DNA of 64,000 nucleotides from Deltaproteobacteria bacterium (GTDB lineage Bacteria; Desulfobacterota; GWC2-55-46; DRQE01), in assembly GCA_029858205.1 (NCBI GenBank), contig JAOUFM010000006.1, forward strand, positions 6,094 to 70,093, written 5' to 3'. The notes beneath the pieces are model-generated. The model did no database searches and had not been told where the DNA came from. It saw nothing but the letters and a program-made list of their open reading frames with translations. Shown piece by piece: positions 24,163 to 45,070 of the stretch. The position numbers and the translations under genes were made by a program. Every line of letters starts with the position of its first letter. Position 1 is the stretch's first letter.

Positions 24163-25653
24163 ATGCCGAAAAAATACAAAAACCTCATAAACGGCAGATG
24201 GGCCGATGCCTCAAGCAAAGAAACCATCGAGAGCAGTAACCCGGCAAACGATTCCGACATCGTCGGTATAGTGCCCTCCTCCGGCAAAAAAGACATAGAC
24301 GCTGCAGTTGACGCCGCGAGAAAGGCGTTTAATTCGTGGCGTCTTGTCCCTGCCCCAAAGCGCGGAGAGATCATATTCAAGGCAGCAGAAGCGCTCGTTA
24401 AACGTAAGGCCGAGCTTGGCAAGCTCGTCACTAAAGAAATGGGAAAAGTCCTTAAGGAAGGCCTTGGCGATGTGCAGGAAGCAATCGACATGGCCTACTT
24501 TATGGCAGGCGAAGGCCGCCGCTTATCGGGCGAGACCGTGCCCTCGGAACTTTCTAACAAAGACTGTAAGAGTATCCGCGTGCCAAAGGGAGTATTTGGC
24601 CTCATAACACCGTGGAACTTCCCTACAGCCATACCAGCGTGGAAGATATTTCCGGCGCTCATTAGCGGCAATACAGTTGTATTCAAGCCTTCGAGCTACA
24701 CGCCTGTATCCGCAACAGTGCTCGTTGACATTATAAACAGCGCCGGGCTGCCGCCCGGTGTTTTGAACCTTGTACACGGCTTGGGAGAGGCTACGGGCGA
24801 ATACCTTGCCTCGCATAAGGGGCTTGACGGCGTGTCGTTTACAGGCTCGAGCTCGGTTGGAGCAAAGCTTGCTTCGATATGCGCGCTAAGCGGCACGGAA
24901 ATCACATGCGAGATGGGAGGGAAAAACCCCATCATAATAATGCACGACGCTGACCTCTCGCTTGCGCTCGAAGGCGCTCTATGGGCAGCATTTGGAACTA
25001 CTGGGCAGCGCTGCACTGCAGCAAGCCGCATTATCGTGCATGAGAAGGTCTACAATAAGTTCCTCGCGCTCTTCACTGCAAAGGCGAAGAAGCTAAGGCT
25101 CGGTGACGGGCTTAAGCCGACGACCGACGTCGGCCCCCTTATAAATGAAGGCCAGATGCAGCGCGTGCTGCGTTATATCGACATCGGCAAAAAAGAAGGC
25201 GCAAGGCTCATGTGCGGCGGCAAGAGGGCTGCTGGCGGCGCGCTAAAAAAAGGCTTTTTCATCGAGCCCACGGTATTTGCCGACGTCGCTCCTTCCATGC
25301 GCATAGCAAAGGAGGAAATATTTGGCCCTGTAGTGTCGGTAATAAAGGTAAAAAGCCTTAAGGAAGCAATCGACACTGCAAACGGCACTGACTACGGGCT
25401 TTCGTCATCCATATACACTCGCGACGTGAACGCATCGGCTGTTGCGGAGCGCGATTTAAATAGCGGCATCGTGTACATAAATGCGCCGACAATCGGCGCG
25501 GAGATACAGCTTCCATTTGGCGGCATAAAGAAGAGCGGGCTCGGGCATAAAGAAGCAGGCGGCAGAGGCGGCGCGCTCGATACTTTTACGACCTGGAAGG
25601 TCGTGTACAGGGACTTCTCTGGCTCGCTTCAAAAGGCGCAGATAGAGGATTGA
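24163..25653 (+). CDS. NAD(P)-dependent aldehyde dehydrogenase (possibly 1-pyrroline-5-carboxylate dehydrogenase)
   Basis: ALDH signatures: [10 protein letters not shown], the catalytic ...GQRCTAAS... and the glutamate motif. Confidence 0.85.
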
Positions 25654-25670
25654 AATAGTTTTACTTTTAC

Positions 25671-25691
25671 GGTGATTTTGTTATAATCACC
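25671..25691. promoter_or_regulatory. AT-centred palindrome overlapping a -10-like TATAAT upstream of the ferritin-like gene
   Basis: GGTGATT-ttgttata-AATCACC, 37 nt upstream of the ATG at 25730. Confidence 0.3.
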
Positions 25692-25729
25692 ACACACCAA
25701 ATTTCTCCCTACGGAGGTTTAGTAGACGC

Positions 25730-26227
25730 ATGGATCCGGTACATTTTTCAGCAGAAGAAATACTCGATATGGCCATCCGCATAGAAGAGAACGGGGAAAA
25801 GTTCTACGCCGCTGCGGCAAAGAGCGCGAAGAACCCGAAGCTTAAGGAACTCTTCGAGTTCCTCGTGAAAGAAGAACTAAAGCACGCAGCGTACTTCGGA
25901 AAACTTAAAAAGCTCGTTGCCGAGTACACCCCGCACGGCGCGGCAGACCCGTACCTCGACGAAGCGTCCATGTACATAAAGGCACTCTCGGATGCAAAGG
26001 TCTTCCATAGAGAGACCGACCCTAAAGAGCTTGCCAGAAAGACCGAGAACGAGGAAAAGGCAATTGATTTCGCAATAGAGGCTGAAAAGGAATCGCTCCT
26101 CTTCTACTACGAGATACAGAAGTCGATACGCGATAAGGACAGAAAGATAGTAGACGACATCATCATAGAGGAAAAGGACCACCTCCAGCGCCTTACAGCC
26201 ATTAAGCACGAATTCTACGGCAAATAA
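25730..26227 (+). CDS. Ferritin-like diiron domain protein (rubrerythrin-family core without a rubredoxin domain)
   Basis: Two ExxH motifs (EELKHAAY, EEKDHLQR) in a four-helix-bundle spacing; 165 aa. Confidence 0.7.
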   Translation: MDPVHFSAEEILDMAIRIEENGEKFYAAAAKSAKNPKLKELFEFLVKEELKHAAYFGKLKKLVAEYTPHGAADPYLDEASMYIKALSDAKVFHRETDPKELARKTENEEKAIDFAIEAEKESLLFYYEIQKSIRDKDRKIVDDIIIEEKDHLQRLTAIKHEFYGK

Positions 26228-26250
26228 CTTTTAGCAGAGGAGATACTGCC

Positions 26251-26499
26251 ATGACAGAATACGTAAAAACATACAAGTGTTCCAAGTGCGGCACAATGAC
26301 CAGCGGCCGCGGGCATCTTTGCCACCCAAACCCCGAGGCAGGCCCGCATAAGTGCGAGTACTGCAAAAAGACCGTAACAGACGTGAGGCACGTGTGTAAG
26401 GAGATGCTCGACTCTGTCGAGTACATCTGCAAGAAGTGCGGACGCCTCTCGGCCTACAGCTCGCTTCTTTGCGAGCCCGAGCTCGTATCAGGGGACTAA
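26251..26499 (+). CDS. Small Cys-rich metal-binding protein (three CxxC plus extra Cys/His)
   Basis: CSKCG...CHPNPE...CEYCKK...CKEM...CKKCG...C. It starts 23 nt after the ferritin-like gene. Confidence 0.5.
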   Translation: MTEYVKTYKCSKCGTMTSGRGHLCHPNPEAGPHKCEYCKKTVTDVRHVCKEMLDSVEYICKKCGRLSAYSSLLCEPELVSGD

Positions 26500-26520
26500 A
26501 AAACTACCAAAGGACGCGGC

Positions 26521-27819
26521 GTGGCTAAACCAAAGAGCGTCAAAAATATGCGGCGCCACCTGACCCCTGCGCTCTTCTTCCACACGAAGATAACGGCGAA
26601 GAAGGCAAAAGGCGCGTGGGTCTATTCAAAAGACGGTAAAAAGTACCTCGACCTCGCGGCCGGGCTCGCCACCTTATCCACCGGCCACTCTCACCCGACC
26701 ATCATAAAGGCCGCGACAAAGCAAATACAGAACTTCGTCCACTCGGGCTGCATATTCTACTACGACCCGATCATCGAACTTTCAAAGAAACTCGCCTCCA
26801 TAACGCCTGGCTCCATAGACATGTTCTTTTTCTCGAACTCCGGGGCCGAGGCTGTCGAAGGCGCAATCAAACTCGCCCGCCACTATACCGGGCGCCAGGG
26901 CGTCATAGGGTTTACCGGAGGGTTCCACGGCCGCACGTACGGCGCAGCCACACTTACAACGTCTTCTGTGAAGTACAGGCGGCGCTACCATCCGCTCGTT
27001 CCGTCCTTTTATCATGCCCCCTACCCGTACTGCTACCGCTGCTTCATGGGCAGGGAGACAAACACCTGTTCGGTCGAATGCTTCACCTACTTCGAGCGTA
27101 TGCTCGATCACCTCATCGCCTCAGATGAAGTCGCCTGCGTTATCATAGAGCCGGTGCTTGGCGAAGGCGGCTACGCCCCTGCTCCGCTAAAGTATATGAA
27201 GAAGCTTGCCGAGTACTGCAAGAAACACGGCATACTAATCGTCTCCGACGAAGTGCAAACGGGGTTTGGCAGAACTGGAAAGTGGTTTGCCATAGAGCAC
27301 TACGGCATAAAGCCTGACATCATAACCCTTGGCAAGGGAATCGCCTCCGGGTTCCCGCTTAGCGCCGTAGGAGCTTCGAGCCGCATAATGGGCAAGTGGC
27401 CGGTTGGCGCGCACGGCACGACTTTTGGAGGAAACCCTGTTTCATGCGCAGCGGCTCTTGCCACTATCGGCGTCATAGAAAAAGAACGTCTTATAGATAA
27501 CGCGCGCTCCCTTGGCGAGTACGGGCTAAAGCGCCTTCTCGAAATAAAGCGCAAACATCCCGGCACAATCGGCGACGTGCGGGGCCTCGGGCTGATGCTT
27601 GGAGCGGAGCTGATTACGGAAAACGAAAAGCCTGACCACGCGCTTACGATGCGCGTTGTCGAAGAGGCCGAGCGTCAAGGCCTAATAATAGTCGAATGCG
27701 GCATACACAAAAACATCATCCGCTTCATGCCTCCGCTAAACATCAAACGCGCGGAGATGAGCCTGGCGCTCGATATATTCGAGGCTGCTTTGAAGAAATC
27801 CTCGCGCCAAAGGAAATAG
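26521..27819 (+). CDS. Class III pyridoxal-phosphate aminotransferase (ornithine/acetylornithine/GABA aminotransferase family)
   Basis: ...YLDLAAGLATLSTGHSHP..., SDEVQTGFGRTGKWFA (PLP lysine motif) and GKGIASGFP. Confidence 0.85.
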   Translation: MAKPKSVKNMRRHLTPALFFHTKITAKKAKGAWVYSKDGKKYLDLAAGLATLSTGHSHPTIIKAATKQIQNFVHSGCIFYYDPIIELSKKLASITPGSIDMFFFSNSGAEAVEGAIKLARHYTGRQGVIGFTGGFHGRTYGAATLTTSSVKYRRRYHPLVPSFYHAPYPYCYRCFMGRETNTCSVECFTYFERMLDHLIASDEVACVIIEPVLGEGGYAPAPLKYMKKLAEYCKKHGILIVSDEVQTGFGRTGKWFAIEHYGIKPDIITLGKGIASGFPLSAVGASSRIMGKWPVGAHGTTFGGNPVSCAAALATIGVIEKERLIDNARSLGEYGLKRLLEIKRKHPGTIGDVRGLGLMLGAELITENEKPDHALTMRVVEEAERQGLIIVECGIHKNIIRFMPPLNIKRAEMSLALDIFEAALKKSSRQRK

Positions 27820-37121: not shown

Positions 37122-39254
37122 CTAATGCCCGGCTGCCCCGGCAGGTGTTGCGTGATGCGATTTTGCGTGGTGAACGCCTATTTTACGCTCTTTTAAGGCG
37201 TTTAGCCCCTCCTCCACATAGGCCTTAAGCTCCTTTGCCATTTTGCCCCTGCGCTCGGTTTCCTTACCCTCGGGTATGACAACGGACTTTGGCGGGTGCT
37301 TTGTGTCGTATTCATAGAGCACGGGCTTTTCCTTGGGTGCAACAATGTATATCCTGTTGTCCTCTACAATAGCGACATTTTCATCCCCGCCCGAATGCTT
37401 TATAACGGCAAAGCCCTTATCTTTCAATGCCTGGGAAAATAGATTTCTGCCCCAGCCCTGGTGCGGCGCATCGCTTCCGATGAGAGCAAGAACGCTTGGC
37501 CCGATGTCTACATGGCTTGCAACCGTATCGCGTCTTACGCCATGCGCCTTCAAAAGTTTCGGAGAATAGAAAAGAAGCGGCACATGGAGCTTATCGAGGC
37601 TCATGTGCGTTATCGGCCACTCGGTACCTATGCCGTGGTCCCCGGTTATGACAAAAAGCGTATTGTCGAAATATTTTTCCTTTGACGCGGCCTTGAAGAA
37701 CTCGCCAAGGGCCCAGTCCGCGTACTTCATGGCGTTGTATCTATTCTCCATTGCATCGCCGGACTTTATACGCTCAAACGGCAACGGCGGCAGATTAAAC
37801 GGCGAATGGTTCGTAAGCGTAAGGATTGCGCCGAAAAACGGCTTGTCCTTCGACATGTTCTTGAATTCCTCGTTGGCGCGCATGAAGACGTCGTAATCGG
37901 CGACACCCCACACCGGGTCGACGAACGTGGGGTTCACGTAATCGTCCGTGCCAACGAACTTATTTATGCCGTGCTGCCTGAAAAATCCCTCTTTATTGTC
38001 CCAGGAGAAAAGCCCGTTATAAAGGAAGATGCTATCGTAGCCTTTTGACGTAAGAATCGTCGGAAGCCCCGAGAACTCCTGGTACGCGTCCATGGTCTTC
38101 ATTAGATACTCATGCCCTGGAAGGTTCGGAAAAGACGTAAGCGAGGCGAACACGCCCTGGTGCGTATGAGAGCCGTTCGAGAAAGCGCGCTCGAAAAGCA
38201 CGCCGTCCTTTGCAAGTTTATCGAACGAAGGCGTTATGTTGTGCTCATCTCCAAGCGAGCCAACGAGACGGCCCGAGAAACTCTCCATTAGTATTATGAC
38301 GACGTTTACGGGCTTCTCCGGCTTTTTCACGAGATACGCATTGGCGGTCTCGGGGCCTTCTTTCCTAAGAAGAGGCAACTCAGCGCTCGCAAGGTCGGTC
38401 TCGGTAGTCTGTATAAGCATGTCATGCGTGATTTTTTCCGCGTCCTTTGCCGAATACGTCTTAGTCCAGTAATTCTCCTTTGTCGAAAGCTTTTCAAGAG
38501 AACTCCTGCCAAGCGTGAACACGGCATTTAAGGCAAGGTTATTTGCAAATGCCTCGTCCGAAAAATACGCATCCCCCCACCTAAGCGGCTCCTTGTAGAA
38601 CCCTCCCCGCATGCCAAACACCATGAGCGTGATAACGACAAACGTGCCGGCATACCCTGCTATGCGGTGATTTCTCGTTAGTTCCGGAATGTTGGTCTTT
38701 GAGCCAAGTAATTTCTTGTAAAGGACAAATACGGCAAAGGAAAAGAGCGCCATCACCACGGCCCAGAACAAGGCGTACTTCACTACCGGGTAGCCTTCCC
38801 ACACCATGCCACCTACTATCTCCGGGTGGGTCGCGTACTCGAATATGGCGGAGTTAAAGCGCATCTGAAGTTCGCGGTAGAACTCTACCTCTCCAAGGCA
38901 GAGAAAGAACAGGGCCGAGAAAAACGCGGTAAATGCCGCTAGTATGTGCGGCGAGAACCTCCGTGGAACAAAAAGCAAAAGCAATAGAAGCGGTATCAGA
39001 AGATACGAACTTATAGCGATATCGAACCTTAGGCCGTAGAAAAAGCTCTTCAAAAGAAGCGTAACCGGCAGGTGCTCGGCCAAACCGTAATTCCTGTAGA
39101 GCATGACGGCCCTTGCTGTCTCGAAGACGGCTATGAGCAGCACATACGCGGCGAGCACGAAATACACTTCGCGCCTTATTATATGACCGAGAATCGAGTT
39201 TGATTTGGTATTGCCCATGATGTTTGCTTGCGCGCGGAACAGTTCCCAGCGCAT
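37122..39254 (-). CDS. LTA-synthase/sulfatase-family membrane protein (alkaline-phosphatase superfamily)
   Basis: An N-terminal polytopic membrane region, then a sulfatase-like domain (VVIILMESFSG...NGSHTHQG...TGDHG). The start overlaps the hemerythrin stop (TGATG). Confidence 0.7.
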   Translation of the reverse strand: MRWELFRAQANIMGNTKSNSILGHIIRREVYFVLAAYVLLIAVFETARAVMLYRNYGLAEHLPVTLLLKSFFYGLRFDIAISSYLLIPLLLLLLFVPRRFSPHILAAFTAFFSALFFLCLGEVEFYRELQMRFNSAIFEYATHPEIVGGMVWEGYPVVKYALFWAVVMALFSFAVFVLYKKLLGSKTNIPELTRNHRIAGYAGTFVVITLMVFGMRGGFYKEPLRWGDAYFSDEAFANNLALNAVFTLGRSSLEKLSTKENYWTKTYSAKDAEKITHDMLIQTTETDLASAELPLLRKEGPETANAYLVKKPEKPVNVVIILMESFSGRLVGSLGDEHNITPSFDKLAKDGVLFERAFSNGSHTHQGVFASLTSFPNLPGHEYLMKTMDAYQEFSGLPTILTSKGYDSIFLYNGLFSWDNKEGFFRQHGINKFVGTDDYVNPTFVDPVWGVADYDVFMRANEEFKNMSKDKPFFGAILTLTNHSPFNLPPLPFERIKSGDAMENRYNAMKYADWALGEFFKAASKEKYFDNTLFVITGDHGIGTEWPITHMSLDKLHVPLLFYSPKLLKAHGVRRDTVASHVDIGPSVLALIGSDAPHQGWGRNLFSQALKDKGFAVIKHSGGDENVAIVEDNRIYIVAPKEKPVLYEYDTKHPPKSVVIPEGKETERRGKMAKELKAYVEEGLNALKERKIGVHHAKSHHATPAGAAGH

Positions 39255-39649
39255 CAGGATTTAAGTATGTGCCTGCCGAGCTTCTTGTCCTCTACGCTTA
39301 TATGGTTGGCCAGCCAGTCAAAGATATGCGTTTTCAAGTGCTCCATATCGAAGTTGCCACCACTTTCAAGACGCTTTCTGATATCCGATATTTCTTCTAT
39401 AAAGTGATGGTGCTCCTCGGTGTGCGCAACACTTTCGGCAAAAGAGGTATCGCTCATGGCCTTTTCCTCGTCATGAAAATGCACGACAGCGTAGTCGTCT
39501 AGAAAATCGAGGAACTTGATTGTCGTTGCCATATCCGCATGCGCCTCTACGGCATTCAGAAGCGCCTCGACCTTTTGAATAAGCTCGAGGTGCTGCTTGT
39601 CCTGCCACTGCACGCCTGTTTCCAGGTCCTTGGAGAACTCTATCTTCAT
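39254..39649 (-). CDS. Hemerythrin-like (bacteriohemerythrin) protein
   Basis: H...HFxxEE...H...H spacing (VVHFHDEEKAM...HTEEHHHFIEE...HIFDWLANHI); 131 aa. Confidence 0.7.
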   Translation of the reverse strand: MKIEFSKDLETGVQWQDKQHLELIQKVEALLNAVEAHADMATTIKFLDFLDDYAVVHFHDEEKAMSDTSFAESVAHTEEHHHFIEEISDIRKRLESGGNFDMEHLKTHIFDWLANHISVEDKKLGRHILKS

Positions 39650-39716
39650 GTCTTAAGTGATTAGCCTTTCAAACCGTATAAAAAGAGCCGAAAATTCCAT
39701 ATCCCGAAATGATAAC

Positions 39717-39756
39717 GTCACCGCCCTTGCTATAAAAGGACGGTGACGCCGTTAAA
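39717..39756 (-). terminator. Hairpin terminator just downstream of the extended rhodanese ORF
   Basis: On the minus strand, a GGCGTCACCG...CGGTGACG 8-10-bp stem is followed by a U-rich stretch. It sits after the TAA at 39774-39776 rather than after the internal TGA. Confidence 0.4.
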
Positions 39757-39773
39757 GTGTCCGTACCAGACTG

Positions 39774-40298
39774 TTATTGCTGCGCTGGCTTTGGCTCGAC
39801 AGGGCCGTTTGCCTGCAACCATGCCCCGAACCCTCCGAGAAGGGCCTTTACGTTCTTGTAACCGTGTTCGTTAAGGTAGAGCGCCGCACCGGCGCTCGAG
39901 TGTTCGTCGGGTCACGTGCAGTACGTGACTATCAGCGTCCTTTTGTCAAAGGGCAGCAGAGAAAGCTTGTTGCCAAGCTCCGTGTACACTATCCTAACAT
40001 CGCCCTTTATCTTTATCGTGCTGCCTGCGTACGAAGTAGGCGACCTCAAGTCGATTATCGTTACAGGCACGCCTTGCTTCTGGAGCTTTAACACCTCTTC
40101 GGCGCCGATACGCGCTACCACCGCAAGATCTTCCTTGGCGTAGACCTTGTAGGGCGCTTCCTGAGAAGCAGCGCCGGGGGCTGCCGAACCAGGCTGCACT
40201 ACCAGGTTACCGGGGGTATTATCCCCTGCCCAGGACTCATGCGCCAACACAAGAGCCATGGCCGCGGTCAAAGCAAAAGATATCCATTTTCTCATCAT
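39774..40298 (-). CDS. Periplasmic rhodanese-like sulfurtransferase, probable selenoprotein (in-frame UGA at 39912-39914 read as Sec)
   Basis: Signal peptide (MMRKWISFALTAAMALVLAHESWA), then a rhodanese fold ending ...TLIVTYCT-TGA. The same frame continues PDEHSSAGAALYLNEHGYKNVKALLGGFGAWLQANGPVEPKPAQQ* with no start codon or SD, and this matches the conserved rhodanese C-terminal segment. Total length about 174 aa. Confidence 0.6.
39879..39897 (-). other. Candidate bacterial SECIS hairpin
   Basis: In the mRNA, UGA + 14 nt, then GAGCGCCG-GUG-CGGCGCUC (8-bp GC stem with a loop containing GGU). Spacing and loop composition match those of bacterial SECIS elements. Confidence 0.45.
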
Positions 40299-40507
40299 CC
40301 ACCTCGAGCGGTATTTTATCTGTTCCTTACAGGCCCTTTAACGTCATGCCCGGGACAATCCTTGGCAACCCTCGCTACAGTGAGCCACCCTCGGAACCAT
40401 GAAACGGTTACACATGGCAATCACCTCCTTGGAACATGCGTCACATATATTATTATAACGCAAAAAAAGGCTTTTGGAAAGCCTTTTAGAGGCTAAATGC
40501 GCAGCTA

Positions 40508-41050
40508 TTAACGGGACTCCTTCTCGACACTGAACTCCATGAAGTCGCACCAGAAGCCGTCCTTTAAAAGCGCCTCGTGCTCCCACCTTAGAAGCTTAAG
40601 GTGCCCCTTCTCCATCTCGAGAAGGTTCGTAAGAAACACCTTTTGTTCCGGGGTTTCGGCCTCGTCCCTTAGCATCCTGTCATAGAAGGCAACGGCGTGC
40701 TCCTCGCTCTCTATTGCAACCGCTATCGCGCCTTCGTCAGACGGATTTTTCTTCAACTTCTTTATAAGCTCGTTTTCATCCGGGAATATGGCAAGCGCCT
40801 TCGTTCCCCTTACGACCGCCCCTGCCTCCTTTGCTTCCTTATAGCCTTTCCACGTGCCGGAACCTTTAAGAGAAGCGATGATGCCGGTTATGACGTCTAT
40901 ATGCTCGAGTTCCTCGGAAGCAAGATGGTTAAAAACGTTCTTGCCGTGCTCGTCCTTGGTCATCTCTGCCGCGTGCTTATAGAAACCGTATCCGTTCATC
41001 TCTGTCTTGTAAGCAATGGAAAGCTCATCCGCCAATTTGTTTTTAGACAT
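40508..41050 (-). CDS. Rubrerythrin-like ferritin-fold diiron protein lacking a rubredoxin domain
   Basis: ExxH pairs (ASEELEHIDV, ESEEHAVAFY, EMEKGHLKLL); 180 aa. Confidence 0.75.
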   Translation of the reverse strand: MSKNKLADELSIAYKTEMNGYGFYKHAAEMTKDEHGKNVFNHLASEELEHIDVITGIIASLKGSGTWKGYKEAKEAGAVVRGTKALAIFPDENELIKKLKKNPSDEGAIAVAIESEEHAVAFYDRMLRDEAETPEQKVFLTNLLEMEKGHLKLLRWEHEALLKDGFWCDFMEFSVEKESR

Positions 41051-41097
41051 TACGCAATGTCTCCTTTCGAAATTTGTATTCCGGTAAGCAGCGCGAG

Positions 41098-41268
41098 CTA
41101 CTTTCTGCCGGAATCGGTCTTTCCTGCCTTTTCAACGCCTCTTTTCTGCTCAAAGGCCTCGCCGCGTATCTTTTCCTCGCACGACTGGCATATCACCAGG
41201 TCGGATGGCTTGGCGCAGACCGAACAAACGTGCTTTTTCTTTTTCTCGTCCTTTTTTTCTTCTCCCAT
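41098..41268 (-). CDS. Small zinc-ribbon/rubredoxin-like protein (56 aa), not in the ORF track
   Basis: GGAGGTAG SD, then MGEEKKDEKKKKHVCSVCAKPSDLVICQSCEEKIRGEAFEQKRGVEKAGKTDSGRK* (CxxC...CxxC). It lies directly upstream of the ferritin-like gene on the same strand. Confidence 0.5.
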   Translation of the reverse strand: MGEEKKDEKKKKHVCSVCAKPSDLVICQSCEEKIRGEAFEQKRGVEKAGKTDSGRK

Positions 41269-41358
41269 GACCGTCTACCTCCGCTGTATTTTTTATATCC
41301 TAAAAAAGCGCCGAATACCGTTTCATAACGCCTGACGCCGAAAACTCATGCCCAAATA

Positions 41359-42498
41359 TTATAGCATATCCTGCATGTCATTTCCCGTAAAACCGGAAAG
41401 CCTCTGCTTCTTGTCAAACCCCTTGGCCTGGGCCAGTACCATCATCGTGTCGCTTATGCCGCCCGGCATGACGAGGTTCTTGACACTCTGATTCGTAAGC
41501 ACAGTGTCGGCGCTTACCTGCCCCTTTTCCGGCATCTCCGTTAGTTCATCGAGTATGCCAAGAGATAAAAGAAACTGCCTCTGGGTCGTAAACCCGGCTA
41601 CAGTGAGCCCGGCCGCGCTTCCCGCGTTTTTAAGGGCCGTGAAATCCACGTGCGCGGTTATGTCCTGCTCGCCGATGCGTTCATACGGCATGTTATTTAC
41701 CGTGTGCTTATAATGGCAGTGAAGTGTAGAGCCCCTGCCGGACGCATACAGCTTCGAAGCCGCTGCTCCGTAGTCTATCGTAACAACAAAGCCCTGGTCA
41801 AATGTTTTCGCGGCATTTCCCAGCCAAACAGAACAAAACGGCGACACCTCGAATCCAGAGCCCACAGGCAACCCCTTTGTAACCTCCATAAAACAGCGCC
41901 CGAGTTCCTCAAACGAAGGCTCCAGGATAACATCTCCAAAAGAACCGCTTGCCTTATCGAGCCCGACAAAAATCTCCTTTGGGCCCTCAGGCGTTACCAC
42001 CCCCCTATGAAACGGCAGCGCGTCGAATAGTTCGTTAGAGTAAACGCAGGCATTCATGAAATGCCCTGCTTTCGTAATATCCGAAACCCAAACGGCCTTA
42101 CTTCCGTGCGCCTGGTTTTCAACGTGCAGGGCCGCGTTTCTCTCGACCAAAACGGCGGTAGATGCCTCGTAAAGGGCCCCGTAGCGCTCCTTCATCACAT
42201 CGAGCACGCTAAACGTCAGCAGCCCCCTGCCTGCGCCGCCTTCTATAAGCGCAAAGTCCGAAGGGCTATTACAACGCTGCCAGCACTCGTAAATCTGGCG
42301 GCAAAGCGCGGCTGCGAAGATCCTTACCCCTGAGTCCAGGGAGGTAAAATAATCGCCTTTTTCGCCCCAGGGCGCGCCGGCCCTGTTGCCCAGGCGCATG
42401 TAATACCCGCCTTCTGCGTAAAGCGCGACATCCATAAACTCGGCAAACGGCATGGGGCCGCGCTTACGGATACGCCTCTTTATCTCTTCTACGACCAT
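41359..42498 (-). CDS. Class I SAM-dependent methyltransferase, MidA/NDUFAF7 (DUF185) family
   Basis: Family-typical N-terminus (PFAEFMDVALY...GYY) and a central methyltransferase fold; 379 aa. Confidence 0.7.
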   Translation of the reverse strand: MVVEEIKRRIRKRGPMPFAEFMDVALYAEGGYYMRLGNRAGAPWGEKGDYFTSLDSGVRIFAAALCRQIYECWQRCNSPSDFALIEGGAGRGLLTFSVLDVMKERYGALYEASTAVLVERNAALHVENQAHGSKAVWVSDITKAGHFMNACVYSNELFDALPFHRGVVTPEGPKEIFVGLDKASGSFGDVILEPSFEELGRCFMEVTKGLPVGSGFEVSPFCSVWLGNAAKTFDQGFVVTIDYGAAASKLYASGRGSTLHCHYKHTVNNMPYERIGEQDITAHVDFTALKNAGSAAGLTVAGFTTQRQFLLSLGILDELTEMPEKGQVSADTVLTNQSVKNLVMPGGISDTMMVLAQAKGFDKKQRLSGFTGNDMQDML

Positions 42499-42528
42499 AG
42501 GGCCGCTATCATCGCGCGGTTCACGGCG

Positions 42529-42648
42529 TTACTCGACCTCGACAAACGCCTCTCTGGTCGCAAAGCACTCGGGGCAGAACTCCGGGGGCTCCGGCCCTTC
42601 GTGCACATACCCGCACTCAACGCATCTCCATTTTTTCGCTTCCGCCAT
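42529..42648 (-). CDS. Stand-alone rubrerythrin-type rubredoxin-like domain protein (39 aa), not in the ORF track
   Basis: MAEAKKWRCVECGYVHEGPEPPEFCPECFATREAFVEVE* matches the C-terminal rubredoxin domain of rubrerythrins (WxCxxCGYxxEG..P..CPxC). It starts 2 nt after the bacterioferritin-like stop. Confidence 0.6.
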   Translation of the reverse strand: MAEAKKWRCVECGYVHEGPEPPEFCPECFATREAFVEVE

Positions 42649-42650
42649 AA

Positions 42651-43073
42651 TCAGTCGAGCACCGTCTCCCACTCATCGGCATGCCCTTCCTCGTCCTCGA
42701 GGATTGCCTCGAGCATGCATCTCGTAGTAACATCTCCGTGTTTGACGCAAAGTTCTATGTGCTTTTTATATCTCTCGATTGCCTCGTTCTCGGCCTCGAG
42801 GTCGTCCTTTATCATGTCCTTTAAGCTTCCGCCGCGCTTGGAGGGCGTGGGCTTTTGCACAGGAACGCCTCCGAGGTAGGCTATTCTCTCGGCCAGCATT
42901 TCCGCATGCTTCATTTCGTCTATGGCCGTTTTTTTGAAAATTTCGGCGATTGCCGGGCTCTCCATGCCCGAGCCCTCATAGTGGTGCCCCATGTACTGAA
43001 TAATGGCGCCGAGCTCGAATGCCCTGTCCAGGTTCAGCGCGTCTATAATCTCTTTGTTAACTTTCTTAGCCAT
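42651..43073 (-). CDS. Bacterioferritin-like protein (Bfr family, shortened)
   Basis: ...ELGAIIQY...IDEMKHAEML...AILEDEEGHADEWETVLD closely parallels the Bfr ferroxidase-centre motifs; 140 aa. Confidence 0.8.
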   Translation of the reverse strand: MAKKVNKEIIDALNLDRAFELGAIIQYMGHHYEGSGMESPAIAEIFKKTAIDEMKHAEMLAERIAYLGGVPVQKPTPSKRGGSLKDMIKDDLEAENEAIERYKKHIELCVKHGDVTTRCMLEAILEDEEGHADEWETVLD

Positions 43074-43165: not shown

Positions 43166-43193
43166 GGCTATAATCTTATAACAGATTATAGCC
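43166..43193. promoter_or_regulatory. AT-rich 9-bp-arm palindrome upstream of the bfr-like operon (candidate PerR/Fur-family operator)
   Basis: GGCTATAAT-cttataacag-ATTATAGCC. The internal TATAATcTTATAA resembles Fur/PerR boxes. Confidence 0.3.
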
Positions 43194-43256: not shown

Positions 43257-43699
43257 AGAGGATAGGTCTTTTGACTCAGGCAAAACCGTCAAAAAGCGCA
43301 CATCGCAGCCAGACATCCGCTTACTCTGTACATTTTGAACGCGAAGAAGTCTTATACCGGTCCGGAAACAATCGGGCCGTAAGCTTGAATAAGTACAATT
43401 TGCGACAAAGGGCGTCGACATTGTCTAGAACCTCCATGACAGAAGCCATACTTAATAAGGTGTACACCTCAACCGGTTTTCTTAAACGGATATTTCTCGT
43501 GCTCGCAATCCCGGCAGCGAGAAAGATAGTCTGCTATGCCCGTGAGGCGCACCGCGTGCTGCTGCCCTACTTTACCCCTGCTCTAAATGCTCTCGAGCGG
43601 ACGGCCAACAAAGTAAGCATCTGGATATCCAGGCTCATAAGAAAAATACGGATAGCCCTTCGCCCGGTTTCAGAGTACCTAAGGGGACGCTTCCTGAAG

Positions 43700-45070
43700 A
43701 TGAACATGGCGAAGAAGATGCTGCTGGCGTATTTTCCGCTTGCCGTGCTCCTGATACTTATTTCCGTCTTCACGCTCTTTAGCTTCAAACGCATCAACGC
43801 CGTCATGAACTCGATGCTATACGCCGACGTGGCCGTCATAGAAGTTACCAACATGCTTACAGATACGCTCATAGACCAGGAGACCTACGGCCACCGCTAC
43901 CTGATACTTAAAAACCCCGACATGCTAAAGATATACAAGGAGAAGAGCGAAGAGTTCGCCAACACGGTGAGTGTGATGGCCATGATACCGGACTCATCGA
44001 AATTGCCAATCAAAGAACTCAGCACGCTGCACCACGAGTACGACAAGTTTTTCAAGAACATCTTTCACGCGTCTGAAAACGGATTGCCCACGGCAACGTT
44101 TGAGAGAAAAGCCGACTTGAAACGCGACGAGCTTGTTGTGCTGCTAAAGAAACTTACCGCCGACACCTTGAAATCCCAGAACGCGAAGATCCAGGGCATT
44201 GCCGACTTCGGCTCCAACGCCTTTGTTCTCACCGCAGGCATAGGCATACTCGGCCTTATAATAGGCATCGGCGCTGCGCTCTATATAACCAAGAACATCT
44301 CTACGTCCATAGAACAGCTCAAAATCGGCACCAGGAACGTCGCAAACGGCAACTTCCTCGACATTCCCAAGGTCGAGAGCGAGGACGAACTCGGCGACCT
44401 TTCGGTCGCGTTCATGGATATGGCCAACCGGCTAAAGCGGCTCGAAGAGATGTACCTCGACGCAAGTCCGCTTACGAGGCTTCCCGGCGGCATAGCCATC
44501 GAGAACGTGCTCAAAAAACGCGTTGAAGCGAACCTGCCGGTGGCATTTTGCTTCGCCGACATAGACAACTTCAAGGCCTACAACGACAGGCACGGATACG
44601 CAAAAGGAAGCGAACTCATCCTGGCGGTCTCCAAGATAATGAAGGATGTTATACGAGACTTCGGCACAAGCGAGGATTTCCTCGGTCATATAGGCGGCGA
44701 CGACTTCGTTATGATAACCACGCCGGCGCGCCACGACATGCTTTGCACCAAGATAATAGATAAGTTTGACATGGCAATTCCTTTCTTCTATACTGAAGAG
44801 GAAGTGAAACAAGGCTACATAGACGGCAAGTCGCGCCAGGGGCAGAAGATGAAGTTCCCTCTGGCAACGTTATCCATAGCGGTAGTAACCAACAAGCTTC
44901 GCCGCATCACAAACCACATCGAGTACGGCGAGATAGCGGCGGAATTGAAGGAATTCGCAAAGAGCATCCCGAAGAGCGCGTACGTCGTCGACAAGCGCAC
45001 AAACGAAAACATAGGCTACGCGCCGACCGCGCCGCATAACGTCAATTGGCAAAAAGAAAGGACTACATGA
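43700..45070 (+). CDS. Membrane sensor with periplasmic domain, HAMP and a GGDEF domain (motif variant GGDDF)
   Basis: TM1 (LLAYFPLAVLLILISVFTLFSF), a ~170-aa periplasmic region, TM2, HAMP (SEDELGDLSVAFMDMANRL), then ...FADIDNFKAYNDRHGYAKGSELI...HIGGDDFVMI. The start is taken at the ATG 14 nt after AAGGGGA. The ORF-track start at 43271 is a TTG. Confidence 0.75.
   Translation: MNMAKKMLLAYFPLAVLLILISVFTLFSFKRINAVMNSMLYADVAVIEVTNMLTDTLIDQETYGHRYLILKNPDMLKIYKEKSEEFANTVSVMAMIPDSSKLPIKELSTLHHEYDKFFKNIFHASENGLPTATFERKADLKRDELVVLLKKLTADTLKSQNAKIQGIADFGSNAFVLTAGIGILGLIIGIGAALYITKNISTSIEQLKIGTRNVANGNFLDIPKVESEDELGDLSVAFMDMANRLKRLEEMYLDASPLTRLPGGIAIENVLKKRVEANLPVAFCFADIDNFKAYNDRHGYAKGSELILAVSKIMKDVIRDFGTSEDFLGHIGGDDFVMITTPARHDMLCTKIIDKFDMAIPFFYTEEEVKQGYIDGKSRQGQKMKFPLATLSIAVVTNKLRRITNHIEYGEIAAELKEFAKSIPKSAYVVDKRTNENIGYAPTAPHNVNWQKERTT

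Follow-up and report, generated by a model that had tools for sequence, protein, structure and literature searches.

Are the ferritin-like genes of this stretch of DNA, each of which neighbours a very small gene for a Cys-rich protein, the separated halves of split rubrerythrins? The stretch, referred to below as the window, comprises 64,000 nucleotides (nt) of contig JAOUFM010000006.1 from a Deltaproteobacteria bacterium (assembly GCA_029858205.1, positions 6,094 to 70,093 of the forward strand), and the original prediction read in it a recurrent split rubrerythrin made of three such pairs. Our analysis retains a ferritin and rubredoxin pair at 42529-43073 only; the small proteins of the two other pairs, zn56 and cys82, are not rubredoxin-like. 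In the retained pair the ferritin is assigned to the mini-bacterioferritins (mBfr), and we consider it rather probable that its 39-aa neighbour, rd39, serves as the dedicated one-electron carrier of a 12-subunit, haem-containing mBfr.

The proteins are named here mBfr (or bfr140, 140 aa), rd39 (39 aa), zn56 (56 aa), fer180 (180 aa), fer165 (165 aa) and cys82 (82 aa), and all six open reading frames (ORFs) were found where the original prediction had placed them. The public record, a Deltaproteobacteria/Thermodesulfobacteriota metagenome-assembled genome (MAG) in which they fall on a 491-kb contig, holds the six exact sequences (MDH4227350/51/65/66/68 and neighbours), in which the 39-aa protein is named 'rubredoxin' and the 56- and 82-aa proteins 'hypothetical'. 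About four shadow ORFs of the window, which are non-coding, contain double-CxxC strings as well, so that the motif alone is weak evidence and the argument must be carried by conservation. The original prediction proposed to look for the small ORFs in related genomes, and they are kept there: rd39 in 34 species-level genomes, zn56 in 37 genomes and cys82 in 50 clusters (55-71% identity). The median pairwise ratio of nonsynonymous to synonymous substitutions (dN/dS) is 0.18 for rd39 and 0.12 for zn56, and both are under purifying selection.

The mini-bacterioferritin gene and its small neighbour

The two genes of the retained pair are the following.

42651..43073, minus strand: mBfr, 140 aa, bfr-like (PF00210 Ferritin, 108.6 bits)
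42529..42648, minus strand: rd39, 39-aa rubrerythrin-type rubredoxin-like protein, CxxCG-x12-CPxC (PF21349 RUBY_RBDX, 45.1 bits)

The description of the 140-aa gene as bacterioferritin-like, with the 39-aa ORF 2 nt later, agrees with these coordinates and with the PF00210 score. The same protein reaches only 35.7 bits against PF02915 (Rubrerythrin), and the adjacent partner of rd39 is assigned as a mini-bacterioferritin and not as a rubrerythrin. The nearest solved structure is PDB 9qq4 (E 6.5e-52; 64% identity, 86 of 134 aligned residues), and the next is the Bfr of D. desulfuricans (1nf4, E 6e-23). The 9qq4 structure is that of the mini-bacterioferritin purified from Ca. Methanoperedens carboxydivorans (Mper-mBfr; structures 9qq4/9qq5/9qqh/9qqi), a 12-mer cage whose subunits are four-helix bundles and nothing more, with a diiron ferroxidase site of the canonical kind and, between subunits, six coprohaems, and the signature of the group consists of His29, Gly34 and Met52 together with the canonical ferroxidase ligands (Wissink et al., Commun Biol 2026, PMC13168243). 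In the window protein, the equivalents of the three signature residues are H31, G36 and M54, the last corresponding to the haem ligand, and the ferroxidase ligands E20/E53/H56/E95/E128/H131 are all present. The dimer-interface residues E58, E62, R63 and E129 are present as well, R17 aligns with the propionate-contacting Arg13 of Mper-mBfr, and these residues are invariant across 23 homologues. The protein consists of the four-helix bundle with neither N- nor C-terminal extension: aligned with the E. coli Bfr of 158 residues, it covers residues 5-139, and its end falls at the position where a 24-mer bacterioferritin would continue with its E-helix. From the identity to 9qq4, we infer for the window mBfr a 12-mer cage with inter-subunit haem.

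The original prediction also took the 39-aa ORF for the C-terminal rubredoxin module of a rubrerythrin, and here it was borne out. The rd39 protein passes Pfam PF21349 with 45.1 bits for a cut-off of 26.5, and its best solved match is the D. vulgaris rubrerythrin's C-terminal domain (1ryt, residues 151-180; E 2.4e-8), with 17 of 30 residues identical (57%). No match to PF00301 was found for rd39 at E <= 0.1, the spacer between its two CxxC motifs is of 12 residues versus about 29 in canonical rubredoxins (proteins of 45-55 aa with CxxCG and CPxCG motifs and an aromatic core), and its matches to the latter reach only the first knuckle. By its sequence, rd39 is therefore classified as a rubrerythrin-type rubredoxin domain and not as a canonical long-spacer rubredoxin.

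The proximity of both genes raises the question of whether they are a single fused Bfr-rubredoxin gene broken by an assembly or sequencing frameshift, as the original prediction had itself considered. The start of rd39 lies just 2 nt past the TGA of mBfr and in a different frame (TGAttATG), which is what such an error could leave; an SD-like (Shine-Dalgarno-like) GGAG is found 17 nt upstream of the rd39 ATG. To follow the pair beyond the window, one genome per species was scanned, giving 80 mBfr loci. In 34 of these 80 species-level loci a standalone same-strand ORF of 34-54 aa, with the pattern CxxC[G/S/A]-x12-CPxC, lies directly downstream of mBfr, at distances ranging from -41 to 224 nt (median about 26 nt), and many of these ORFs have their own Shine-Dalgarno sequence. 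Among the best 120 homologues of the 140-aa protein, 118 measure 138-149 aa, the two others have N-terminal extensions and none carries a C-terminal rubredoxin extension; the solved Mper-mBfr itself measures 139 aa. Since 34 independent assemblies hold separate orthologous ORFs at variable distances and the homologues are of uniform length, the fused gene is refuted, and we give the frameshift practically no credence. Two rubredoxin ORFs of the survey are themselves altered, by decay or error: in one a TGA stands at the conserved Trp codon (L065:2469-2585) and in the other a Gly replaces the third Cys (L057:977-1099).

The position next to mBfr across genomes

Among the 47 Delta-like loci with at least 700 nt of sequence downstream of mBfr, a carrier gene follows mBfr in 41 (32 rubredoxin-like and 9 cytochrome b5-like), and six have neither. 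Nine related genomes lack rd39 and carry, between mBfr and the methyltransferase gene described below, a gene for a 78-aa cytochrome b5-like protein (PF00173, 30.7 bits for a cut-off of 23.7; L006, L007, L009, L011, L012, L015, L017, L024 and L061, e.g. L009:4731-4967). In these genomes one small electron carrier has been replaced by another that is not its orthologue. Possible haem ligands of the cytochrome b5-like protein are seen in 'ESHPAG' and 'APHG'. Over all 80 species-level loci, 34 have a rubredoxin-like and 9 a cytochrome b5-like gene downstream of mBfr, to which three Nitrospiria loci are added, and a carrier gene is thus conserved beside the gene of the ferritin cage.

The order in Nitrospiria (L033:3081-4978; also L035 and L044) is rubrerythrin, a 110-aa RUBY_RBDX-domain protein, mBfr and flavodoxin, the flavodoxin being shown for L033. 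In this locus the classical rubrerythrin has 167 aa and the flavodoxin 146 aa, and the 110-aa protein begins with its RUBY_RBDX domain and continues with a helical C-terminal part that is uncharacterised. One Chloroflexi locus shows the order rubrerythrin, mBfr and small rubredoxin-like ORF. The methyltransferase, zn56 and fer180 genes that accompany mBfr in the window are absent from the Nitrospiria and Chloroflexi loci, and the association of the rubredoxin therefore tracks mBfr.

The five-gene cluster and the other Cys-rich miniproteins

On the minus strand of the window, mBfr and rd39 are followed by three further genes and a terminator-like hairpin, and a palindrome precedes them.

41359..42498, minus strand: MidA/NDUFAF7-type S-adenosylmethionine (SAM)-dependent methyltransferase (Methyltransf_28), 379 aa (PF02636, E 7e-51)
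41098..41268, minus strand: zn56, 56-aa zinc-finger-like miniprotein, CxxC-x8-CxxC (from conservation and an AlphaFold2 (AF2) model)
40508..41050, minus strand: fer180, 180-aa diiron-carboxylate four-helix-bundle protein (PF02915 Rubrerythrin, 41 bits)
40465..40487, minus strand: terminator-like hairpin and T-run closing the five-gene cluster, 10-pair stem with TTTGCGTTAT tail (consensus match only)
43166..43193, no strand: perfect palindrome GGCTATAATCT-N6-AGATTATAGCC, putative operator, 93-120 nt upstream of the mBfr start

The same succession (mBfr, in most cases a carrier gene, then the MidA-type methyltransferase, zn56 and fer180) is found in 36 of the 41 Delta-like loci with enough downstream sequence, and the methyltransferase is syntenic in 38 of these 41, between the carrier gene and zn56. 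This order is kept in spite of a divergence of the methyltransferase down to 35-46% identity. What was found is best regarded as a conserved five-gene cluster, at 40465-43073 on the minus strand of the window. The methyltransferase is a constant member of it, with no substrate evident; its eukaryotic homologue NDUFAF7 methylates an arginine of the complex I subunit NDUFS2.

Each of the 37 zn56 orthologues is located directly upstream of a fer180 orthologue, and this adjacency, on which the original prediction relied to propose a reverse rubrerythrin split in two, is real but clade-specific. The rubredoxin half of the proposal did not hold. The zn56 protein (consensus KH-x-CSICGKPS-x3-ICHACEDKIRGEAxEKKHxxxKAGRTDSGRR) comprises a Lys/Glu-rich N-terminus, then H-x-CxxC-x8-CxxC and a conserved helix, and it matches no Pfam or NCBIfam family, neither rubredoxin nor RUBY_RBDX. 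The best hit of a profile search against the PDB was a PHD finger (E 0.016), rubredoxins being matched over the first knuckle only and at E >= 0.16. In the AF2 model (predicted local distance difference test, pLDDT, 68) a beta-hairpin knuckle is followed by a helix of 20 residues (28-48) that opens with the second CxxC, and Foldseek returned no significant fold match for the model (all E > 0.2); the matches listed, headed by the ClpX zinc domain and CsfB, include neither a rubredoxin nor a rubrerythrin. An exhaustive profile search gave 168 matches, the long ones being Usp proteins (PF00582) with a C-terminal zn56 domain, and none of the 168 relatives is fused to a ferritin-like fold. Such Usp fusions were seen in many unrelated sequences (P0200, P0201, P0212, P0239, P0240, P0251, P0261, P0267, P0272 and P0287), where the domain has the form CxxC-x8-CxxC followed by RIRGEALExK...AGR, and zn56 appears to represent an uncurated domain family. 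Two distant standalone relatives, on two short contigs, stand beside GreA and an ATPase gene and are too few to generalise. On the x8 spacing, the Usp fusions, the AF2/Foldseek results and the PDB profiles, zn56 is rejected as the N-terminal rubredoxin domain of a reverse rubrerythrin.

The neighbouring fer180 shows the motifs E17-x6-Y24, E47xxH50, E116-x6-Y123 and E147xxH150, whose ligands do not vary among 35 orthologues. The solved structures closest to it are those of P. furiosus PF1190 (2fzf, E 5e-7) and TM1526 (1vjx, E 5.5e-5); PF1190 is related to archaeoferritin, for which the E-x6-Y/ExxH motif has been defined (PMC3401498). With the motif present twice, no rubredoxin domain and similarity to 2FZF and 1VJX, fer180 is placed by sequence in the archaeoferritin/PF1190/TM1526 branch.

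The third proposed pair is located elsewhere in the window, on the other strand.

25730..26227, plus strand: fer165, 165-aa rubrerythrin-family diiron protein (PF02915, 55.5 bits)
26251..26499, plus strand: cys82, 82-aa triple zinc-knuckle protein (from invariant Cys/His and profile matches)

The fer165 protein is a paralogue of fer180 (26-31% identity) and cross-matches fer180 orthologues. The cys82 family (80-85 aa, conserved) is built of three 25-residue repeats, CxxC-x8-HxC twice and CxxC-x10-C once, in the manner of CCHC/CCC zinc knuckles, with C10, C13, H22, C24, H25, C35, C38, H47, C49, C60, C63 and C74 invariant. Its profile matches arrays of C2H2 fingers in tandem (E 5.9e-6) as well as small zinc-finger proteins resembling HVO_2753 (E 1.2e-3); no Pfam or NCBIfam rubredoxin or RUBY_RBDX match was obtained, and the profiles gave no significant rubredoxin match. 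The AF2 model (pLDDT 78) had no significant Foldseek match (E > 0.2) and no rubredoxin among the matches listed. On the ligand pattern, the C2H2-array profile matches and the lack of a fold match, a rubredoxin-like cys82 is rejected, and the pair at 25730-26499 is not of the kind found beside mBfr. From their sequences, zn56 and cys82 are both classed as conserved zinc-finger-like miniproteins, not as rubredoxin modules. The fer165 and cys82 genes belong to a conserved operon, preceded there by an aldehyde dehydrogenase gene and followed by those of a class-III aminotransferase (Aminotran_3) and a PAP2/PMT membrane protein; the operon occupies 24163-27819 in the window, and the PAP2/PMT gene comes next in the relatives L081-L086. 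This context is unusual for a rubrerythrin-family protein.

The composition of both loci bears on the hypothesis of an adjacency without functional coupling, in which rd39, zn56 and cys82 would be small metal-binding proteins kept together by inherited synteny in one lineage and having unrelated partners or regulatory roles. Such a hypothesis accounts for the fact that the syntenic loci come mostly from related Deltaproteobacteria/Thermodesulfobacteriota MAGs, for the zn56-domain relatives that are fused to Usp or stand beside GreA or an ATPase gene, and for the place of cys82 in an aldehyde dehydrogenase/aminotransferase operon. It accounts less well for the synteny that outlasted the divergence of the methyltransferase and, as regards rd39, for another carrier in the same slot and for the independent rubredoxin-mBfr arrangements of Nitrospiria and Chloroflexi. 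We judge it unlikely as a whole, and quite plausible for zn56 and cys82.

Concerning regulation, the palindrome at 43166-43193 has two arms of 11 nt (GGCTATAATCT-GTTATA-AGATTATAGCC) and stands in the intergenic stretch that separates mBfr from a divergent HAMP-GGDEF gene (43271-45070). Being AT-rich and of Fur/PerR-box-like composition, it is a possible operator in the window; a conserved operator upstream of mBfr was rejected, the palindrome not being kept in the related bacterial loci. Methanoperedens mBfr genes share another perfect palindrome, TCATTGATTTATCAATGA, about 42 nt upstream of the start (L046, L055, L062, L068, L070, L072, L074-L076 and L078), which may be an operator. Directly past the cluster terminator (39254-40298) are found a rhodanese-like gene (128 aa), whose product starts with a hydrophobic segment that suggests a signal peptide, and a gene for a hemerythrin (131 aa, PF01814). 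In L022, and more weakly in L030, homologues of the latter likewise occur a few kb downstream of mBfr, and their recurrence suggests a loose oxygen/iron-related neighbourhood around mBfr.

A proposed role for rd39 in the light of known systems

The physiological role and the electron donors of mBfr are listed as open in the study of Mper-mBfr, which makes no mention of rubredoxin, operon or gene neighbours (PMC13168243). For the carrier role favoured here, the following steps can be proposed by analogy with BfrB-Bfd and with the Bfr and rubredoxin-2 of D. desulfuricans: (i) rd39 would bind one Fe through its four Cys; (ii) it would be reduced by a cellular reductase encoded elsewhere than nearby; (iii) it would dock at the dimer interface of mBfr; and (iv) single electrons would pass from rd39 through the Met54-ligated inter-subunit haem to the ferric core, leading to the release of Fe(II). 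The flanking genes that were checked (sulfatase, Obg, glutamate kinase, GGDEF and PBP1) include neither a rubredoxin reductase nor a Fur/PerR gene. Less likely, rd39 would feed the diiron site of mBfr for the reduction of O2 or H2O2.

This last possibility joins another explanation, according to which the genes encode a rubrerythrin-like peroxidase of two subunits, with rd39 delivering electrons to an H2O2-reducing diiron site in mBfr or in fer180. The nearest relatives of rd39 are indeed rubrerythrin C-terminal domains, fer180 belongs to PF02915 with its complete double E-x6-Y/ExxH ligand set, a classical rubrerythrin adjoins the mBfr/rubredoxin genes in Nitrospiria and Chloroflexi, and a hemerythrin gene lies just downstream of the cluster. 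A protective role of mBfr against oxygen has also been discussed, for a protein which is however a cage-forming, haem-binding ferroxidase with in vitro iron uptake and not a rubrerythrin (PMC13168243). Moreover, rd39 adjoins mBfr, with fer180 some 1.5 kb away, the link of rubredoxin with mBfr holds in loci without fer180, and a generic electron donor agrees better with the presence of cytochrome b5-like and flavodoxin genes at or next to this slot. Taken together, these data make a split peroxidase improbable.

Several observations nevertheless weigh against rd39 as a dedicated carrier of mBfr. A rubredoxin or cytochrome b5 neighbour is found in none of the 18 archaeal mBfr loci (mostly Methanoperedens), and the only characterised mBfr comes precisely from Methanoperedens, where its gene has neither of these nearby; in the one locus read in detail (L068:3097-3929) an erythrin-like gene (135 aa) and a CxxC-containing AhpD/carboxymuconolactone-decarboxylase-like gene lie upstream of mBfr instead. 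Six Delta-like loci lack a carrier gene, and one (L037:2802-3839), in which mBfr is duplicated in tandem, has a rubredoxin remnant truncated to 33 aa that retains the first CxxC only, so that the partner is dispensable or replaceable in trans. Most of the supporting loci fall within one broad lineage, and part of the synteny is therefore shared ancestry. The co-clustered rubrerythrin-family protein fer180 could be the real partner of rd39. Finally, a translational coupling of mBfr and rd39 in the window is plausible but unproven.

A wider reading of the same data would be that mBfrs have dedicated carriers which are interchangeable between lineages (39-aa rubredoxin, cytochrome b5-like protein, or rubredoxin-domain protein with flavodoxin), and that one bacterial lineage embeds them in an undescribed five-gene iron/redox module with a MidA/NDUFAF7-type methyltransferase, an archaeoferritin-like protein and a new Usp-appended CxxC-x8-CxxC-helix domain. 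We put this forward tentatively, as a possibility rather than an expectation. The narrower proposal, rd39 as carrier of mBfr, has a direct use: mini-bacterioferritins were defined only in 2025-2026, and rd39, a conserved gene immediately downstream of mBfr that is swapped for another type of carrier in sister lineages, offers a concrete candidate, cheap to test, for the redox partner mobilising iron from the 12-mer cage. The link is not surprising in principle, yet it makes an open question on mBfr accessible to a simple experiment. The idea of a split rubrerythrin that recurs is corrected at the same time, and two conserved, uncurated families of Cys-rich miniproteins are brought to attention, one of them also fused to Usp.

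The separate encoding of a rubredoxin, which the original prediction held to be unusual for a Bfr-like core, belongs to a known theme. In D. desulfuricans, Bfr and rubredoxin-2 reportedly share an operon, and as there a small carrier gene stands here beside that of a haem-containing bacterioferritin-type cage. The same likeness holds for the BfrB-Bfd pair of Pseudomonas (complex 4E6K), in which a small one-electron carrier is encoded beside such a cage. The Bfr of D. desulfuricans shares furthermore with Mper-mBfr the unusual coprohaem cofactor (PMC13168243). The window mBfr resembles Mper-mBfr in its length, its four-helix-only architecture, its ferroxidase ligands, its haem-ligand Met and its His29/Gly34 signature, and differs in that Mper-mBfr is archaeal and has no rubredoxin or cytochrome b5 neighbour.

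Among the rubrerythrins, classical and reverse, rd39 has its homologue in the C-terminal Fe(Cys)4 domain, and fer180 and fer165 belong to the Pfam Rubrerythrin family with full diiron ligands. One-domain rubrerythrins relying on separately encoded partners are known, sulerythrin and ferriperoxin being included as rubredoxin-less erythrins (Cardenas et al. 2016, PMC5114695). The window differs from these systems: nothing is fused, the neighbour of rd39 is bacterioferritin-type, zn56 and cys82 are not rubredoxin-like, and DUF3501 and RFO, the described partners of rubredoxin-less rubrerythrins (PMC5114695), are absent. As members of the archaeoferritin branch, fer180 and its relatives share the doubled motif and the absence of a rubredoxin domain; the similarity of fer180 to them is however low (E 5e-7), and a partner gene upstream such as zn56 is not described for the branch in PMC3401498. 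The zn56 model recalls the ClpX N-terminal zinc-binding domain and the CsfB modules by its knuckle hairpin and by the second CxxC at the helix start (Foldseek E > 0.2), and cys82 differs from tandem C2H2/C2HC fingers and HVO_2753-like proteins by its CCHC/CCC ligand sets and its period of 25 residues; neither of the two has a curated family.

The association of mBfr with rd39 is thus a variation on the known theme of a bacterioferritin and its redox partner, applied to the newly defined mini-bacterioferritins. Compared with the Bfr-Bfd and Bfr-rubredoxin-2 systems, the cage is of the mini type (a 12-mer by homology) without E-helix, and the carrier is a 39-aa rubrerythrin-type domain with an x12 spacer instead of a canonical rubredoxin of 45-60 aa or a [2Fe-2S] Bfd. 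Its type also changes here from one lineage to another, between rubredoxin-like, cytochrome b5-like and flavodoxin.

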